A stretch of DNA of 64,000 bases from contig JAJACK010000001.1 in NCBI GenBank assembly GCA_022601535.1, positions 5,993-69,992 of the forward strand, in the 5' to 3' direction. Each line of letters starts with the position of its first letter. Positions within the stretch are counted from its first letter, which is position 1. The stretch is from Chlamydiales bacterium. Its GTDB lineage: Bacteria; Chlamydiota; Chlamydiia; Chlamydiales; JAAKFR01. Below the pieces are notes generated by a model. That model was given only the letters and a program-made list of their open reading frames with translations, was not told where the DNA came from and searched no databases. Position numbers and translations under genes: made by a program. Positions 5,119 through 33,600 of the stretch are shown here, piece by piece.

Positions 5119-7251
5119 ATGGATCAAATTTTTGGTTACATAGAACGCATTACTTTTCAAAATACCGAAAATGGGTTCACCGTCGCACGCCTTAAGCAGC
5201 CACGGAAGAACGAGTTGACCACCATTGTGGGAAAACTGCCTCAACTGCACCCCGGAGAGAGTGTCCGCCTTCTTGGTTCTTGGAAGACCAATCCAACCCA
5301 TGGCATCCAATTTGATGTAGCTGAATGCGAAATCGAAGAGCCGAGTGATGTCGTTGGAATTCAAAAATATCTAGAATCGGGGATGATCAAAGGGATCGGT
5401 CCCATCTATGCAAAGCGGATTGTCAAAAGATTTGGTGAAAAAACACTTGAAGTGATCGATCAACATCCCAATCGCCTTTCCAATATCGAGGGAATTGGGA
5501 AGAAAAGATTAGAACAGATCAAACGGTGTTGGGGTGAGCATAAGGCGATTCGAGAAGTGATGATCTTCTTGCAAAAAAATGGTGTCACCCCTGCCTATGC
5601 GCAAAAAGTGTTTAAAGTATATGGAGAAGAGACTGTTGAACGGCTGCAGGAAAATCCGTATACATTGGCACTCCATATCCCTGGAATTGGATTTAAAAGT
5701 GCCGATACAATCGCCTCACGGATGGGATTTCCCAAAGATGGCACTGCAAGAATTGATGCAGGAATCGACTACGTATTGAGTGAGCTCTCCGCACAAGGAC
5801 ACACATGCTATCCCAAAGAAGAATTTGTGGAAAAAGCGGAGCAAATGCTCGAAGTCTCTCTTGAGGAGCGGTTAAAAGCTGCATTGAATGAAGATCGAGT
5901 GATTGAGCGAGAGGGAATGATCTACTCGAAAAAGCTATGGATTGCCGAGCGAGGTGTTGAGAGCCAAGTCAAAAGGCTTCTTCAAGGTCAAAGCCTCATT
6001 CGTGATGTCAAAACAGATAAAGCAATTGAATGGGTCGAAGAGCAGCTCGACATCTCCCTTGCTGAGGCGCAAAAGCAAGCGGTGATCACTTCCTTGACGG
6101 AGAAGTTTCATATTATCACAGGAGGTCCAGGAACGGGTAAAAGTACGATTACCAATGCTATTTTAACCATTACTGAAAGACTCACTGGCAACATCATTTT
6201 AGCAGCTCCAACCGGGCGTGCTGCCAAACGGATGAATGAGATTACCAAACGACCAGCTTCTACCATCCACCTTCTTTTGCAGTACGATTTTAAACGGGGC
6301 CGCTTTAAAAAAGATCTCCAAGATCCACTGAGTACTGATTTGATCATTGTCGATGAAGCCTCGATGATTGATACAACACTTATGTACCACCTTCTAAAAG
6401 CGATCCCTTCCCATGCAAGGGTGATTTTTGTCGGTGATGTGAACCAACTTCCAAGTGTTGGGCCAGGCTCCGTTTTAAATGACCTTATTGAGAGCAAAAA
6501 AATCGGCACAACACGTTTGACCAAAATCTATCGGCAAGCAAAACATTCGCGGATTATCACCAATGCTCACCTGATCAATGCAGGAGAATTCCCTGAACTT
6601 TCCACCGATAAAGAGAGCGATTTCTTTTTTATTAAAGCGGAAGAACCAGAAGAAGTTGTCCAAAAGATTGTCCACCTTGTGTGCAAACGACTCCGAGGAA
6701 AATTTCACCCTTTTGATGAGATTCAAGTCCTTGCTCCGATGAAACGAGGAGGGTGTGGTATCGATCTTCTCAACCGCACCTTGCAAGAGAAGCTCAATCC
6801 GCAAAAAGAAGAACTTCTCTCCTCAGGAACCCGCTTTTGTGTCGGGGATAAAGTGATGCAGATTCGGAATAATTACACTAAAGAGGTGTTTAACGGAGAT
6901 ATCGGCCGCCTTGTCAAGATCGACCGAGAAAACCAAGAAGTGTTGATCAAATATGAAGAGAAGATCGTCTCATACACCATCCATGAACTCGATGAAGTGG
7001 TGCTCGCCTATGCCACTTCGATCCATAAATACCAAGGGAGCGAGGCTCCCTGTGTTATCATTCCTGTCCACCCCTCTCACTTTATGATGCTTAAGCGCAA
7101 TCTCCTCTATACAGGGGTGACGAGGGGGAAAAAGCTTGTAATCCTTGTTGGGACGGGCAAAGCCATTGGAATGGCCGTCTCCCAAGATGATGCGAAAAAA
7201 CGGCATACAGGACTTTTCACCTCTGAGGCTTTACATAGCTCATTACCCTAA
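5119..7251 (+). CDS. recD: RecD2-type SF1 ATP-dependent DNA helicase
   Basis: 710-aa ORF. Walker A 'GGPGTGKST', motif II 'LIIVDEASMID', 'VGDVNQLPSVGPG', C-terminal 'AYATSIHKYQGSE' and 'LYTGVTRGKK'. Helix-hairpin-helix-like N-terminal region, as in RecD2/YrrC. Confidence 0.9.
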   Translation: MDQIFGYIERITFQNTENGFTVARLKQPRKNELTTIVGKLPQLHPGESVRLLGSWKTNPTHGIQFDVAECEIEEPSDVVGIQKYLESGMIKGIGPIYAKRIVKRFGEKTLEVIDQHPNRLSNIEGIGKKRLEQIKRCWGEHKAIREVMIFLQKNGVTPAYAQKVFKVYGEETVERLQENPYTLALHIPGIGFKSADTIASRMGFPKDGTARIDAGIDYVLSELSAQGHTCYPKEEFVEKAEQMLEVSLEERLKAALNEDRVIEREGMIYSKKLWIAERGVESQVKRLLQGQSLIRDVKTDKAIEWVEEQLDISLAEAQKQAVITSLTEKFHIITGGPGTGKSTITNAILTITERLTGNIILAAPTGRAAKRMNEITKRPASTIHLLLQYDFKRGRFKKDLQDPLSTDLIIVDEASMIDTTLMYHLLKAIPSHARVIFVGDVNQLPSVGPGSVLNDLIESKKIGTTRLTKIYRQAKHSRIITNAHLINAGEFPELSTDKESDFFFIKAEEPEEVVQKIVHLVCKRLRGKFHPFDEIQVLAPMKRGGCGIDLLNRTLQEKLNPQKEELLSSGTRFCVGDKVMQIRNNYTKEVFNGDIGRLVKIDRENQEVLIKYEEKIVSYTIHELDEVVLAYATSIHKYQGSEAPCVIIPVHPSHFMMLKRNLLYTGVTRGKKLVILVGTGKAIGMAVSQDDAKKRHTGLFTSEALHSSLP

Positions 7252-27395: not shown

Positions 27396-27808
27396 GGGGG
27401 TGTATAGGTTTCGACTTGGAAACTAAGTAGAGACTGCATGCGGAGGACACCGGTGGGCCTCCTAAATCATCCGGTAAAACATTAGCTCGAAAAGATAAAG
27501 CTAATAGCAAACGTGTTGCTTTCCCAGGATCTTTTGTAGGTTCTGAAGAGCAGTACTTTGCAGCAGCTGCTTAATTTAAAGCAGCACGGTCCTTTGAGAC
27601 ATGACCAAGGGTTTTTTAGTGACCGTCATTTACTTGGTATGGAACAGTAATCGCAAGCTTTTAGGTTGCTGATTCCGAGATTAAATAAAGCTGCTCAAGT
27701 TCTAGTGGGGTATCCATCAGAGGGGCTTGAGCTATTGACTGGATACTAAGCATGTAGATGTCGCTATGGAATTTGCCAAGGACGAGGGTTCGAGTCCCTC
27801 CACCTCCA
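27396..27808 (+). ncRNA. ssrA: tmRNA (ssrA)
   Basis: The 5' end 'GGGGGTGTATAGGTTTCGAC' pairs with the 3' end 'CACCTCC' to form a 7-bp acceptor stem with G3:U. T-arm 'GAGGGTTCGAGTCCCTC' and discriminator A at 27808. CCA is not encoded. The internal tag ORF ends ...YFAAAA-TAA. Confidence 0.92.
27500..27574 (+). other. Predicted tmRNA tag reading frame (ANSKRVAFPGSFVGSEEQYFAAAA-stop)
   Basis: A GCT resume codon at 27500 is followed by 23 sense codons and TAA (27572-27574). The Ala-rich hydrophobic C-terminus is typical of proteolysis tags. The exact resume codon is inferred, not proven. Confidence 0.6.
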
Positions 27809-28084
27809 ACTCGTTGGACAATCCTTAAAGTCCACCACTATTTTAAATGGTTTCACGCACTTGTAATGAAAGACTTAGGACTCTCAGTTGCAAGTTCTGA
27901 AACACTAAATTCAAAAGTTGTCATTTTTCCTCTACTTCAGAACTCTCAAAAATTTCTCTAGCACGTGCAGCCAAATTGAGTACCATATTTGCCGTCACAT
28001 AAAAGCACTGGTCGGATGTTTTCATGGATTTTTCTTTAAATTTCCTGTATAAAAAACGAGTCAATCAAGAGGAAGGCTATCTAA

Positions 28085-28717
28085 GTGAAGAAATACAATT
28101 TTTTTGAAAGCCCATTCAAAGGAGTTCCATTAGACAAGCAAGTTAAAAATCCCAATATTATTGTTGGTCGCTATAGTTACTACTCTGGATATTATCATGG
28201 TCATTCTTTCGATGAATGTGCCCGATACCTTATGCCCGATAGGGATGACGTAGATAAGCTCATTATTGGTAGCTTTTGCTCAATTGGCACAGGGGTTTCC
28301 TTCATTATGGCAGGAAACCAAGGACATCACATGGACTGGATCAGTACTTTTCCATTCTTCTATATCGATGAGAAATGCATGGAAGATGCTCCTGATGGTT
28401 ACCAAAGTGTTGGAAATACTGAAGTAGGTCATGATGTATGGATTGGAGCAGAAGCAATGATCATGCCTGGGATAAAGATCGGGCATGGAGCCATTATAGG
28501 CGCACGTTCGATGGTTACAAAAGATGTAAAACCTTATTCCATTATCGGAGGAAATCCTGCAAAGGTGATTCGAATGCGCTTCTCTGATAACCAAATAGAA
28601 CAATTGCTAGAAATGGCGTGGTGGAATTGGTCAGAAGATAAGCTAGCCTCTGCTATGAACCTACTGTGCTCTAAAGACATAGATAAATTATACGAGTACT
28701 GGATAACAATAAAATAG
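28085..28717 (+). CDS. catB: Xenobiotic (hexapeptide-repeat) acetyltransferase, CatB-type chloramphenicol O-acetyltransferase-like
   Basis: 210 aa, GTG start with SD 'GAGGAAGG'. 'FESPFKG...[50 protein letters not shown]', '[19 protein letters not shown]', '[49 protein letters not shown]' and 'MAWWNW'. Near-collinear with CatB/XAT proteins as I remember them. Confidence 0.85.
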
Positions 28718-28795
28718 ATATACAGAATATCTCAGTATGCAGCAAAGCTCATAGAATCTCTCCCCGACAAGTTAAAGGGGTCTTTACCAAGTATT

Positions 28796-29380
28796 GTGAT
28801 GATTAAAAAATTGAGTAACATGAAAAATATTCACCCCAAAAAATTTGCACTGATTGGTCCCCCTGGAAGTGGAAAGTCTACATTTGCCTCTAAGCTTGGT
28901 AAGATCTTAAACCTTCCAGTTCACCACCTAGACAAGCATATATTTGAGCCTGGTGGAAAGAAAAAAGATAAGCAGGAATTCATCGAAATTCAAAAGGCTC
29001 TGCTTGAGGAAACAGCCTGGATCGTTGAGGGATGTTCATTTTCAACTTTTGAAATGAGATTCTCTAAGGCTGATATTCTGATATATTTCCATTTTTCAAA
29101 AGCTGTCTGTTTTTGGAGGTTTTTCAAAAGATTTTTTAACTATAAACAAGAGTTTGGAGGCTTACAAACCATTAATTGGGAACTCCTGAAATACACTTGG
29201 AACTTTGATAAAGAAAAAAGAGCACGAATCACAGAACTCCGAGACAAATATCCTCAGGCTGATTTTCTTGTCTTCAGAACCCCAAAAGATGCTGATCTTT
29301 TCTTAAGACAAAGCAGTGAACGCCACCTCAGCTTCGCAGAAAGAAACAAAAATCTCTATAAGAGACTATCATCCAAATGA
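28796..29380 (+). CDS. P-loop NTPase, adenylate-kinase-like (topology modulation protein family)
   Basis: 'FALIGPPGSGKSTFASKLGKILNLPVHHLD' (Walker A) followed by 'WIVEG'. Size and layout match FlaR/AAA-kinase-like proteins. The start could be 28796, 28799 or 28823. Confidence 0.6.
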   Translation: MMIKKLSNMKNIHPKKFALIGPPGSGKSTFASKLGKILNLPVHHLDKHIFEPGGKKKDKQEFIEIQKALLEETAWIVEGCSFSTFEMRFSKADILIYFHFSKAVCFWRFFKRFFNYKQEFGGLQTINWELLKYTWNFDKEKRARITELRDKYPQADFLVFRTPKDADLFLRQSSERHLSFAERNKNLYKRLSSK

Positions 29381-29433
29381 TGTGCAGGCTCTAGCAAATA
29401 TCTATTTCAATACAATTAATATTCAACACTACA

Positions 29434-29751
29434 GGTCACATCTTAGTTTGCCCTACCAGGAGTATTGAAAAGATGGAAGAATGAACCAAAGAAGAGCTTT
29501 ATGACCTATTTTCTTTGATAGCTAATCTAAAAAGTGCACTCAGTAAAGAATTTGACGCCACAGGATTCAATACTGTATAGAATGGAAATATTGTAGCTGG
29601 ACAAACTCCTCATCTTCATGTACACAGTATTCCTCGTAGTACAAACGATAGAGGCATTGTGGATTATGAGCCTAGATAGTTTCTTTATCGACCTGGTGAA
29701 TGCTTGCCTGAAGAAGAGCTCGCAAAGGTTTGGGCAAAAATTTTAACATAA
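29434..29751 (+). pseudogene. HIT-family (histidine triad) hydrolase pseudogene
   Basis: A single frame reads 'GHILVCPTRSIEKMEE*TKEELYDLFSLIANLKSALSKEFDATGFNTV*NGNIVAGQTPHLHVHSIPRSTNDRGIVDYEPR*FLYRP...'. The HxHxH triad is intact, but there are in-frame stops at 29482 (TGA), 29578 (TAG) and 29677 (TAG). The N-terminal nucleotide-binding part is missing. Confidence 0.75.
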
Positions 29752-29763
29752 GGTTACAGTCAA

Positions 29764-30699
29764 ATGACACTTAATCAGAGCATTCACCCCGAAATTCAAA
29801 CCATCCTTAGAAATTCCCCTCCCTTAGAGATCAAATCTAAATCAATGCTGGAGCTAAGGAAAGCTTTCGATAAGCGTTCAAAGGGGCTCTTTGGTCAACA
29901 ACGTCAGATAGTTCACGTTAGCGAAAAAAAGATTGAAACAACACAAGGGACAAGAAATACGCGCTGGTATTACCCAAATGATAGACCAAATAAGAAAACT
30001 CCGACCCTAGTATTTTTCCATGGTGGAGGATTTGTCTTCGGCAACCTAAATACTTCGGACACTTTTTGCCAAGAACTTGCCAAAACAACTCTTTGTACCG
30101 TTATTGCCAGTGACTACCCACTAGCGCCTGAAAACCCTTTCCCCGCAGCCCCTGAAGCGTGCTACGCGTTGATAGAACAACTAGCCAAAGAAGAGAACGA
30201 CGCCTTTCCTATTTTCATAGCTGGGTCAAGTGCTGGAGGTACTCTTGCTGCTGTGACTGCGTTAATGTCTCGCGACAGAAATGGGCCAAAGTTAGCAGGC
30301 CAGATTTTACTCTGTCCAATGATAAGTGCTGCTATGAACACGGCATCATACAAGTTATGTGCTAACGACTGCGGTCTAACAGCAGAAGCCTGTGCTTGGT
30401 TTTTAGAGCAATATCAATCTCTTTCCGATGACCGAAAAGAAACCTACTTTATGCCTGATAATGCTGACCAGTTGAACGACCTGCCTCCAGCTTTGATTAT
30501 TACAGCTGAATATGACGTTCTCCGAGACGAGGCAATGGCCTACTCTGACCGATTGACTAGAGCGGGTATAGAAACGAAATCACTATGTGCGAAAGGCATG
30601 ACACATGTTTTCTATAGTTTTCCTCTAAACAAAGTGCTGGAAAAAGAGCGTGCTATGGCTGCAATGGCTACCTTTATAAAGAAATATGGAATGCGCTGA
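29764..30699 (+). CDS. Alpha/beta hydrolase fold-3 esterase/lipase (HSL family IV)
   Basis: 311 aa. Oxyanion 'FFHGGGFVFG', nucleophile 'IAGSSAGG' (GxSxG), and late 'DVLRDE' and 'MTHVF' completing the triad. Confidence 0.85.
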   Translation: MTLNQSIHPEIQTILRNSPPLEIKSKSMLELRKAFDKRSKGLFGQQRQIVHVSEKKIETTQGTRNTRWYYPNDRPNKKTPTLVFFHGGGFVFGNLNTSDTFCQELAKTTLCTVIASDYPLAPENPFPAAPEACYALIEQLAKEENDAFPIFIAGSSAGGTLAAVTALMSRDRNGPKLAGQILLCPMISAAMNTASYKLCANDCGLTAEACAWFLEQYQSLSDDRKETYFMPDNADQLNDLPPALIITAEYDVLRDEAMAYSDRLTRAGIETKSLCAKGMTHVFYSFPLNKVLEKERAMAAMATFIKKYGMR

Positions 30700-31080
30700 T
30701 TTACCTGTTAAAGAGTAGCTAAGCAATCATTCACTGCTCAAACTGATCTAATGAGGTAGACTTATGATTCACGGTCTTACCAGACTCACAAAAGTTAATT
30801 AGCTGAATACCATTGACCTTCTGCTTTAAATCAGGATCCTCTATGTATCTCGCTCATTTCTTTTAATATTAATTAAACTATTTATATAAAAAATCACTAA
30901 AAAATAGAACAAAGACAGCAAATCAATTTAATGAGATAGGTTCTATAGATCCATACTTTTATTATGCATATTTTACCCAAGATGTCCGGAAAAAATGGAC
31001 ATACTAAGGAAAACACGACACTCAGCCGATTTCACTAGATCTCTAATCTAAGGCTCTTTCGAGTATGGCAGGTGGAAAGG

Positions 31081-31449
31081 CTATTTATTGAATTCCCTTT
31101 GCTCTAGGGAAGCTAATTCTTTATCTGTCAGTTCAGTTTCGACCAACTCAATTGGAACACCTTCTTCTTCAATCATTGCAACGCGGTAGCCCTCTAACGG
31201 ACTATAAGGACCAAAAAGTATTTTAGCCCCTTTGAGCTCTGCATCTAAATCATCTACCTGAAATGCGAGATGTGGAACTTGAGTGACTAACTCTGGTAAC
31301 CCATGCCCCTCAGGAAAACGGTGCCACTGAATATGCCATTTATTCCCCTCAAAAGGTGTAGAATAAAATTTAAATCCTTCTGTCTCAACAAGAGTTTCAT
31401 CAGGCCGTTTTGCCTTTGTTGGAATTCCATAGTGGTGGTATTTACGCAT
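31081..31449 (-). CDS. VOC (glyoxalase/bleomycin-resistance/dioxygenase) superfamily protein
   Basis: 122 aa. 'HYGIPT', 'HLAFQVDDLDAELKGAKILFGP' and 'VAMIEEEGVPIELVE' fit the beta-alpha-beta-beta-beta VOC pattern with His/Glu metal ligands. Confidence 0.6.
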   Translation of the reverse strand: MRKYHHYGIPTKAKRPDETLVETEGFKFYSTPFEGNKWHIQWHRFPEGHGLPELVTQVPHLAFQVDDLDAELKGAKILFGPYSPLEGYRVAMIEEEGVPIELVETELTDKELASLEQREFNK

Positions 31450-31577
31450 GTTAAAAGACCTAGCTTTAAGGGATCAGCGTAAGCTGTTTTTGCAATTAAA
31501 ACCAACTCTTACATTTGAAGATTCGCCTACGGTTTAGACCTAGACATCTTAAGGAAAATTTAATACACTTCCTCCCC

Positions 31578-32219
31578 ATGAAAGCTCTACATTCTCTTAT
31601 CCTCCTTTTATGCACGTCATTCTCTCTCTTTGCAGCCGAGGCTGAAGATGTTCTAAATTACTGGTTTGGAAATGAATGCGCTTCTTCTGAAAACCTTAAA
31701 AAATGGTTTCAAGGAGGAGAAGAGGTCGATTCAGACATTCGCTCCCTCTTCTATGAAACTCACCAAGATGCCATCTTTGGTCGACTCAATCATTGGAAAC
31801 AAACTCCAAGGGGAAGACTTGCTCTTATTATTCTCCTTGATCAATTTTCTCGAAATCTCTACCGCAATAGCCCTGAAGCATTTATGGGAGACTCTCTTGC
31901 TCTTTCCCTCTCTTTGGAAGGAATTGAAAAGGGCGATGATCTACAAGTTACGCCGGTCGAACGCTCTTTTTTCTACCTCCCCATCGAGCATGCTGAGGAT
32001 CGGCAACTCCAAAAACTTTCAATTGAAAAATTTACTCAACTCGCCGAAAATGCGCCCGCCGAGTTGTCTCAACTCTGTGCAAATTTTTTGGATTACGCCT
32101 ACCGTCATCAAGTGATCATCGATCGGTTCGGTCGCTACCCTCATCGAAACCACGCCCTCCTACGGACAACCTCTCCAGAAGAAAAAGAATTTTTGAAAAA
32201 AGAAGGTTCTTCTTTTTAG
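31578..32219 (+). CDS. DUF924-family protein with signal peptide
   Basis: From ATG 31578: 'MKALHSLILLLCTSFSLFA'. 'VLNYWFG', 'KKWFQGGEEVDSDIR', 'LALIILLDQFSRNLYR', 'FFYLPIEHAED' and 'IIDRFGRYPHRNHALLRTTSPEEKEFL' are the DUF924 blocks. Confidence 0.8.
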   Translation: MKALHSLILLLCTSFSLFAAEAEDVLNYWFGNECASSENLKKWFQGGEEVDSDIRSLFYETHQDAIFGRLNHWKQTPRGRLALIILLDQFSRNLYRNSPEAFMGDSLALSLSLEGIEKGDDLQVTPVERSFFYLPIEHAEDRQLQKLSIEKFTQLAENAPAELSQLCANFLDYAYRHQVIIDRFGRYPHRNHALLRTTSPEEKEFLKKEGSSF

Positions 32220-32286
32220 AGATATCTTTTATATCACAAAACATGTTAGGCTCTTAAGGACTTAACAATAAACCAGTAGATATAGA

Positions 32287-33600
32287 ATGAGTTTTGATGA
32301 ATTGGGCTTACATCCTAAGGTCCTTAAGGCAATTGCCGAATCAGGGTACACCGAGCCGACGAAGATCCAATTAAAAGCTATCCCTAAAATTGCGCGGGGC
32401 TTTGATATCAGAGCTTCTGCTCAAACAGGAACTGGAAAAACTGCAACTTTTCTACTACCTGCACTCTCTCGCCTAGCGGCCCCCTCCCCTGTTAAAGGAA
32501 AAGGGCCTCGCGTGCTTATCCTTGTTCCAACAAGAGAACTTGCGATGCAAATTGCAACTCAAGCAGAAAAATATAGTAAGTATTTGAACAATGTTAAAAC
32601 CGTCTGTGTTGTTGGTGGGGTTCCCTACCACGCTCAAATGCGTAATCTATCTCGCCCCTACGACATTCTTATTGCAACACCTGGACGACTCATCGATTAC
32701 ATCGAACAGAAAAAAGTGACTTTCCCTCGTTTAGAGATGCTGGTTCTTGATGAAGCAGACCGCATGTTAGATATGGGATTTGTTGAACCTGTTGAACAAA
32801 TTGTGAAACTGACTCCAAAAGAGCGGCAAACACTACTCTTTTCTGCAACCTTGCAAGGGAGTGTGATCAAACTGTCAGAACGGTTGATGGAAAAACCGAT
32901 GGAAATCAAAATCCATGCTGAGCGGGAAAAAAATGAAAATATCACTCAGGGAATTCATTTTGCCGACAACCTTCCTCATAAAAATGCCCTTCTTGAGCAC
33001 ACACTGAAAAAAGAGGGTGTTAAATTTGCCATTGTCTTTACAGCAACAAAGCGACATGCCGATAAACTTGTTCGAGAACTGAAGGATGAAGGGCATAAAG
33101 CTGCTGCGCTGCATGGTGACATGAATCAAAGACAACGTTCTAGAACTGTGGAACAGTTGCGCAAAGGGCGAGTCCGTATCTTGGTTGCAACTGATGTTGC
33201 TGCCCGTGGAATTGATGTTCAATCAATCACACATGTGATCAACTTTGATCTTCCCAATAATGTAGAAGATTATGTTCACCGAATTGGACGGACAGGTCGT
33301 GCAGGAGCCAAGGGGACTGCGATCTCATTTGTTGCTAGCTGTGATGCCTATTTGGTTAAAAAGATTGAAAAATTCACCGGTCAAAAGATCGATGTCTTGG
33401 AAATTGAAGGTCTAGAACCCCGCTCTAAGCCAGATTTTACACAACAACAACCTCGCAAGAAGAAAAGCTTCCGCTCTCGCCCAGGTGGTGGTGGTGGTGG
33501 TGCTAGACGGCCTGGTGGTGCTAAACGACCTAAATTTGGAGAGAAAGGAGCGGGAAAAAGACCTTTCCGCCGTCGACGAACACGTGGAGTTCCTGCTTAA
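32287..33600 (+). CDS. DEAD-box ATP-dependent RNA helicase (RhlE-like) with Arg/Gly-rich tail
   Basis: 437 aa. Q motif 'FDELGL..GYTEPTKIQ', 'AQTGTGKT', 'PTRELA', 'VLDEADRMLDMGF', 'SAT', 'ARGIDV', 'HRIGRTGRAG'. The tail is 'RPGGGGGGARRPGGAKRP'. Confidence 0.92.
   Translation: MSFDELGLHPKVLKAIAESGYTEPTKIQLKAIPKIARGFDIRASAQTGTGKTATFLLPALSRLAAPSPVKGKGPRVLILVPTRELAMQIATQAEKYSKYLNNVKTVCVVGGVPYHAQMRNLSRPYDILIATPGRLIDYIEQKKVTFPRLEMLVLDEADRMLDMGFVEPVEQIVKLTPKERQTLLFSATLQGSVIKLSERLMEKPMEIKIHAEREKNENITQGIHFADNLPHKNALLEHTLKKEGVKFAIVFTATKRHADKLVRELKDEGHKAAALHGDMNQRQRSRTVEQLRKGRVRILVATDVAARGIDVQSITHVINFDLPNNVEDYVHRIGRTGRAGAKGTAISFVASCDAYLVKKIEKFTGQKIDVLEIEGLEPRSKPDFTQQQPRKKKSFRSRPGGGGGGARRPGGAKRPKFGEKGAGKRPFRRRRTRGVPA

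Follow-up and report, generated by a model that had tools for sequence, protein, structure and literature searches.

Our analysis concerned the region downstream of ssrA, the gene for transfer-messenger RNA (tmRNA), in a Chlamydiales bacterium (GCA_022601535.1), where a gene for a CatB-type chloramphenicol acetyltransferase lies next to the remains of a large serine recombinase. The window analysed was a stretch of 64,000 nt (contig JAJACK010000001.1, forward-strand positions 5,993 to 69,992), and all coordinates are given within it. The ssrA gene (27396–27808, + strand), the putative integration target, encodes a one-piece tmRNA that was identified with ARAGORN and by Rfam RF00023 (141.6 bits), the sole Rfam match in the region. 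The left flank, consisting of ileS (isoleucyl-tRNA synthetase; 23609–26701, − strand) and two overlapping FliN/SctQ-type genes with PF01052 matches (26753–27371, + strand), was conserved. Among 10 relatives from the same family for which the ssrA region was fetched, 9 carried ileS at the same position (63–77 % identity) and all 10 had at least one FliN/SctQ gene immediately 5′ of ssrA. The two exceptions in the fetched stretches were genes that tblastn failed to detect: ileS in genome G014 and, in G011, the first of the FliN/SctQ genes.

Downstream of ssrA the gene content differed in each of these 10 relatives and included insertion sequence (IS) elements, Fic proteins, ATPases and TetR–monooxygenase pairs, which bears out the proposal of an initial annotation of this DNA that gene content changes directly after ssrA. 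The conserved right flank begins with a DEAD-box RNA helicase gene (32287–33600, + strand), a core gene found in 34 of the 41 genomes (this one included) that were searched for gene presence. The helicase gene is on the same strand as ssrA and lies downstream of it by 4.5 kb in this genome, by 7.6 kb in G020 and by 22.8 kb in G014. The initial annotation had placed the variable interval at 27809–31449. Its left edge stands, but the region extends to 32286 and takes in a DUF924 protein gene (31515–32219, + strand; PF06041, E 1.6e-61), because this accessory gene was patchily distributed (7/41 genomes) and located elsewhere in the genome in the others, whereas the helicase is core.

A serine recombinase remnant at the 3′ end of ssrA

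Adjoining the 3′ end of the tmRNA gene, we found a pseudogene (27831–28031, − strand) that comprises the C-terminal ~65 codons of a large serine recombinase and has two in-frame stops, one TGA and one TAA. It was recovered by searching the genome with a recombinase remnant from relative G010 (E 1.1e-16, 55 % identity), and its translation, FYVTANMVLNLAARAREIFESSEVEEK*QLLNLVFQNL, is homologous to the recombinases of both G010 and G002. The initial annotation had reported no integrase, and this remnant overturns that statement. At the equivalent position in G002 lies an intact protein of 496 aa with Resolvase, Recombinase and Zn_ribbon_recom domains, which abuts ssrA and whose last codons are the reverse complement of the acceptor and T-arm of the tmRNA. 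The 3′ end of ssrA was also overlapped by recombinase copies or remnants in G010, G018 and G037, the G010 remnant being 227 aa long and situated between ssrA and a gene for a VOC-fold protein. DNA alignment with G002 and G010 showed recombinase homology running from the tmRNA end to approximately position 28018, where it breaks at the start of the segment that carries catB.

The G002 recombinase appears to belong to an intact ssrA-integrated element of 6.6 kb (L013, G002:C3, 4596–11635). Its order is the 496-aa recombinase overlapping the tmRNA 3′ end, a 410-aa protein, an IS transposase and an MFS transporter. The element is delimited by direct repeats of 14 nt, TCTCTCCACCTCCA, with a hairpin terminator after the repeat, and the distal repeat region looks like the displaced original end of ssrA. 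Matches of 17 nt to the tmRNA in other relatives were considered as displaced attachment (att) sites and dropped; the one that was checked, in G007, was the T-arm of a tRNA-Leu.

In Dehalococcoides, genomic islands insert into the single-copy tmRNA gene at its 3′ end; the gene for their large serine recombinase, DsiB, lies on the reverse strand beside ssrA/attL and has an ssrA repeat embedded in it (McMurdie et al. 2011, PMC3146451). The chlamydial locus resembles these islands in the orientation and position of the recombinase, the overlap with ssrA, the variable cargo downstream and a crossover in the T-arm, the G002 repeat being 14 nt. It differs in that a pseudogene of ~65 codons is what remains here, no repeat survives and no DsiA/ParB/Mom-type module was seen. 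The chlamydial recombinase is likened to DsiB and CcrB by shared domain architecture only.

The catB unit, its predicted enzyme and its distribution

The gene that follows the recombinase remnant (28085–28717, + strand, GTG start) encodes a protein of 210 aa that we assign to the type B chloramphenicol O-acetyltransferases of the xenobiotic acetyltransferase (XAT) family. It scored 377.6 bits against NCBIfam NF000490 (chloram_CatB; equivalog cut-off 350) over profile positions 3–206 of 210, and 198.2 bits, below the cut-off of 300, against the Vat streptogramin A acetyltransferase model NF000311. The hexapeptide-repeat (left-handed β-helix) domain was recognized by PF00132 (37 bits, cut-off 27). 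Every motif that the initial annotation had quoted in calling this gene a CatB-type acetyltransferase is present in the open reading frame (ORF), and MAGNQGH is identical in CatB8 and CatB9. Solved structures of CatB8 (8j40), Vibrio cholerae CatB9 (3eev) and Pseudomonas aeruginosa PaXAT/CatB7 (1xat/2xat) are collinear with the protein (5–207 vs 3–206); for 8j40, 3eev and 1xat the alignments were nearly full-length with E about 1e-100 and ~70 % identity. H81 aligns with His79 of PaXAT (1xat; query 5–206 vs chain 3–205, offset 2), which we take from established literature to be the catalytic residue. By homology only, the protein is predicted to be a trimeric left-handed β-helix enzyme that uses acetyl-CoA, and the predicted reaction is O-acetylation of chloramphenicol or of a related xenobiotic via the conserved H81. 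Chromosomal XATs often confer low-level resistance only, and their natural substrates are debated. Compared with the known CatB enzymes, the gene described here has an obligate intracellular environmental chlamydia as its host, is not an integron cassette and has a GTG start.

The public gene call for this locus (P0027) is a 161-aa form that begins at an internal ATG (M50). The GTG start is supported by homologues that start at the same place with GTG or ATG, by an upstream Shine–Dalgarno sequence, GAGGAAGG, and by conservation of the N-terminal 49 residues. The short form would lose a conserved N-terminal segment of 14 residues. The gene is kept by purifying selection, as ω was 0.05–0.16.

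Comparison with five other catB loci (L113, L114, L027, L023 and L024) defined the DNA segment in which the gene resides. Homology to these loci begins at 28019–28024 and ends at 28716–28722, giving a shared unit of ~700 bp that consists of a 62-bp upstream block and the ORF, with conservation stopping within 5 nt past the stop codon. The upstream block (28019–28084, + strand), which meets the truncated recombinase at its left edge, contains a promoter-like element (TGGATT-17 nt-TATAAA) ahead of the Shine–Dalgarno sequence. This element was recognized by eye only and the block was not called in a promoter consensus scan, so that the block is best described as a putative promoter. An integron cassette with an attC site was considered and excluded, because nothing is conserved more than 5 nt after the catB stop codon; in addition, the flanks are unrelated and the region has no intI-like ORF. 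At the other catB loci the neighbouring genes were Ada/AlkA/MGMT with an alcohol dehydrogenase, GNAT, Fic with a carbonic anhydrase, or tRNA-Ser, and the flanking genes showed 25–64 % identity to this genome.

The closest catB copy, with 93 % DNA identity, lies in L114 (Logan contig SRR27204694_1299291, 1–850). There a fragment of a P-loop gene (its 3′ end, with 83.5 % identity to window positions 29249–29327) lies ~70 bp upstream of the catB unit, the opposite of the order in the window, where catB precedes the P-loop gene. This reversal could reflect differential loss from a tandem arrangement or independent insertion. In L031 (8001–8786; Waddliaceae metagenome-assembled genome CAWAPJ010000001.1) a 76 %-identical catB ends 72 bp from tRNA-Ser(tga), a further example of catB beside a gene of tRNA type.

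True CatB, taken as at least 62 % identity, was found in 8 of 400 Chlamydiota species genomes. These belong to 7 families, and this genome is the only sampled member of its own family to carry one. A Chlamydiota label is attached only to L027/G203, L028, L031, L034 and L072, while L113, L114, L026 and L023 are assumed to be chlamydial from weak similarity of their flanking proteins. A tree built from 120 CatB homologues placed the protein in a 45-member clade together with all named Chlamydiota sequences (weak support, 81), and several Legionella species were interleaved within that clade. Synonymous divergence (dS) of catB ranged from 0.19 to 1.4 overall. It was 0.19 against L114 (ω 0.16), 0.42 against L113 (ω 0.11) and 0.95 against G203, a member of another family (ω 0.08). 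Synonymous sites of ileS, by comparison, were saturated within the family (proportion of synonymous differences, pS, 0.77–0.81; ω not computed).

More distant XAT paralogues, ~45 % identical to CatB, were seen instead of a true CatB in ~12/40 relatives (G001–G037, loci L002–L012), a frequency that makes hexapeptide xenobiotic acetyltransferases a common feature of environmental chlamydiae. These paralogues form a long-branched clade of their own (Vat-like or other XAT), and the one in G007 lies ~1 kb from a tRNA-Leu.

Other genes of the variable region

The remaining genes correspond to those named by the initial annotation, which had listed an adenylate-kinase-like P-loop protein, a decayed HIT hydrolase, an HSL-family esterase, a gene-free AT-rich stretch and a VOC protein; these identifications held, that of the VOC protein by its predicted fold. 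The P-loop NTPase gene (28820–29380, + strand) is of the FlaR/adenylate-kinase-like 'DNA topology modulation' type, with matches to AAA_18 and PRK08118 that are both weak (128.7 bits for the latter, below the cut-off of 215). Its true start is likely the ATG at 28820, and its C-terminal ~25 codons are probably read-through. The gene was 80 % identical to a copy in G029, which belongs to another family (dS 0.69, ω not computed), and G014 has a gene of 72 % identity 195 bp past ssrA. Beyond the P-loop gene, the G014 stretch (L014, G014:C17, 848129–860000) contained a TetR gene beside an FAD-monooxygenase-like gene, transporters and two copies of a gene of 135–141 aa, an accessory and detoxification-flavoured filling.

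The HIT-family hydrolase is a pseudogene (~29395–29751, + strand) with stops at 29482, 29578 and 29677. With the stops masked it matched PF01230 at 52.3 bits over profile positions 25–97 of 98; the pseudogene has lost its N-terminus and retains a complete histidine triad. A possible N-terminal fragment of a GNAT protein in the frame ISIRDYHPNDVQALANIYFNTI, running from ~29316–29400 into this pseudogene, had no Pfam match and showed no similarity to the GNAT gene beside catB in L026.

The HSL-family (Abhydrolase_3) esterase gene (29764–30699, + strand) is intact and has HGGG and GSSAG motifs (PF07859, E 3.5e-61). Its best NCBIfam match was LipP1 at 267.9 bits, below the cut-off of 350, and a role as a chloramphenicol hydrolase of the EstDL136 type (NF033149) was rejected at 170.1 bits against a cut-off of 500. 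A search of 5.8 billion protein clusters returned one relative of 61 % identity, the rest being at most 45 % identical; on its contig this relative is preceded by a second HSL paralogue. The codon usage of the esterase gene is atypical (2nd percentile). Proximity of HSL and DEAD-box helicase genes in contig L115 was dismissed as synteny, the helicase there being a 44 %-identical paralogue.

Between the esterase gene and the next, convergent gene lies a non-coding AT-rich spacer of 381 bp (30700–31080, 33.6 % GC). It contains no open frame, and a search of the genome and of all fetched loci gave no homologue. The convergent gene (31081–31449, − strand) encodes a small, probably VOC-fold protein of 122 aa with no Pfam or NCBIfam match. 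The top Foldseek matches of its AlphaFold2 model (pLDDT 91) among Protein Data Bank structures were all VOC enzymes, with modest TM-scores of 0.44–0.55 and E 2e-4, and UniRef labels the Waddlia homologue 'VOC domain-containing'. The protein belongs to a highly conserved chlamydial family, 75–89 % identical across Chlamydiota including Waddlia. In G010 an 89 %-identical gene (dS 0.85, ω not computed) is found, in matching orientation, 1 kb beyond ssrA.

Origin and significance of the region

Taken together, this evidence makes it probable, in our judgement, that the 4.5 kb between ssrA and the helicase gene (27809–32286) comprises a dead ssrA-targeting integrative element, an accessory mosaic and a catB unit seated on the truncated integrase. 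In this reading the interval is an accretion zone for integrative elements that a large serine recombinase directs to the ssrA 3′ end; the recombinase gene reads toward ssrA and overlaps the tmRNA 3′ end with its own. The element here is dead, with the last ~65 recombinase codons remaining, two stops among them and no distal att repeat. The surrounding mosaic of P-loop NTPase, HIT pseudogene, HSL esterase, VOC-fold protein and DUF924 would have been exchanged among chlamydial lineages, and the ~700-bp catB unit would be the latest addition, joined exactly at the point of recombinase truncation. Since dS is unsaturated for catB and for the P-loop and VOC genes, whereas ileS is saturated within the family, the common ancestry of these three genes and their counterparts is younger than that of the genomes carrying them, so they were exchanged laterally within the phylum. 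The suggestion of the initial annotation that the islet was acquired, old and degraded agrees with the synteny break, the occurrence of true CatB in 8/400 genomes, the unsaturated dS of catB and the integrase remnant.

Several points weigh against this interpretation. The sole genome of the same genus is 82 % complete and has no assembled ssrA, so that the comparison at ssrA rests on more distant relatives. The last 22 or 29 nt of the tmRNA had no second match with ≤3 mismatches, and there is no distal att repeat in the window. A blastn-short search of the tmRNA 3′ end against the whole genome gave no match longer than 18 nt and none in the window, the position-checked matches being the T-arm segment; the initial annotation, which had seen no direct repeat of this end by eye, was correct in this respect for the window and for the genome. 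The catB unit lacks terminal repeats, attC and any recombination site of its own through which it could move. Composition, too, deviates weakly. The islet, at 39.3 % GC, falls at the 5th percentile of 3.6-kb windows, and catB, at 39.8 % GC, at the 11th percentile of genes, with codon usage typical of the genome. The initial annotation had described the catB region as AT-rich relative to its flanks; the direction of this deviation stands, but it is mild and does not extend to the codon usage of catB. As the composition is only mildly deviant, the acquisition is either ameliorated or from a compositionally similar donor. Finally, in G014 the P-loop gene stands behind ssrA and a native-looking hairpin terminator, with no trace of an integrase. 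Because the P-loop gene follows ssrA in G014 and the VOC gene follows it in G010, these two could be long-standing residents of the locus rather than island cargo.

This last point leads to an alternative in which the only foreign gene is catB. The locus would be prone to rearrangement, with the P-loop, VOC, HSL and DUF924 genes as long-term inhabitants that an integrative element never carried, and the recombinase remnant would come from an unrelated, long-gone element. The short distance (195 bp) between ssrA and the P-loop gene in G014, the shared place and orientation of the VOC gene in G010, the conservation of the VOC family across Chlamydiota and a composition of these genes inside the range of the genome all fit such a history. 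We nevertheless regard it as unlikely, given that each of the four genes was found in only 6–16 of 41 genomes, that the content of the locus is different in every relative, and that the dS values of the P-loop gene to another family and of the VOC gene to G010 (0.69 and 0.85) contrast with the saturation of ileS.

An ancient catB, inherited vertically, lost by most chlamydial lineages and kept similar by constraint, would account for the 62–70 % identity of CatB even to the Vibrio and Pseudomonas enzymes, for the single, weakly supported clade that holds the named Chlamydiota sequences and for codon usage that is fully ameliorated. Constraint on the protein does not protect synonymous sites, however, and these are unsaturated even to another family (G203); moreover, the eight copies in seven families each occupy a different neighbourhood, the homology boundaries are sharp and Legionella sequences are interleaved in the same clade. 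We therefore consider vertical descent highly improbable. An assembly or binning artefact, with foreign DNA spliced into a chlamydial contig, might be entertained for a sharply bounded unit in a genome that may be metagenome-assembled (9 contigs), but it is very unlikely, as the contig around catB is 991 kb long and the sequences to the left and right of the gene both have chlamydial homologues (the remnant in G002 and G010, the P-loop gene in G014), its GC content and codon usage fit the genome and its nearest relatives are chlamydial.

The initial annotation had set this gene beside the tet(C) island of Chlamydia suis in arguing that such genes are very rare in Chlamydiota. That island was acquired recently from Proteobacteria by a veterinary pathogen; it contains IS elements, and its phenotype is proven. 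Both cases concern an acquired gene of drug-resistance type in Chlamydiota; catB differs in being ameliorated, in circulating among environmental Chlamydiota (possibly with Legionella) and in a resistance that is predicted. True CatB was found in 8 of 400 genomes, but the claim of rarity is overstated for environmental chlamydiae, where CatB is already named in public annotations of metagenome-assembled genomes and where the island PnaD_GI4 of Protochlamydia naegleriophila Diamant, linked to tRNA-Met, carries a putative chloramphenicol acetyltransferase (CAT; Bertelli et al. 2016, PMC5010888). PnaD_GI4 and the present region are alike in having a chlamydia-related host, a small strain-specific island by a tRNA-type gene, decaying mobility genes and putative CAT cargo. 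They differ in the target, which is tRNA-Met there and tmRNA here, and the PnaD_GI4 mobility gene is described only as an integrase. The two CAT genes are likened by annotation and not by comparison of CatB lineages.

CatB enzymes, tmRNA-linked islands and CAT genes in chlamydial islands were all known already, so nothing fundamental is changed by the present case. We found no description of ssrA-targeting elements in Chlamydiae in the open-access literature, and the recombinase family may therefore be undescribed there. More tentatively, and with somewhat less than even confidence, we propose that environmental Chlamydiota harbour an undescribed family of ssrA-targeting serine-recombinase elements, a counterpart to the ssrA islands of Dehalococcoides, and that this locus serves as a point at which small self-promoted genes such as the catB unit are exchanged between chlamydial families, and possibly with Legionella in shared amoebal hosts.

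In summary, the region suggests a concrete vehicle for gene exchange in these bacteria, namely ssrA-targeting serine-recombinase elements, one of which is apparently intact in a relative (G002); its recombinase is a candidate site-specific integrase for this phylum, in which genetic tools are scarce. The region also bears on the pool of resistance genes shared with Legionella and others in amoebae and invertebrate hosts. The region shows that obligate intracellular environmental chlamydiae continue to exchange accessory genes at a well-known integration hotspot, among them a gene for an enzyme of the antibiotic-modifying type that is under purifying selection.

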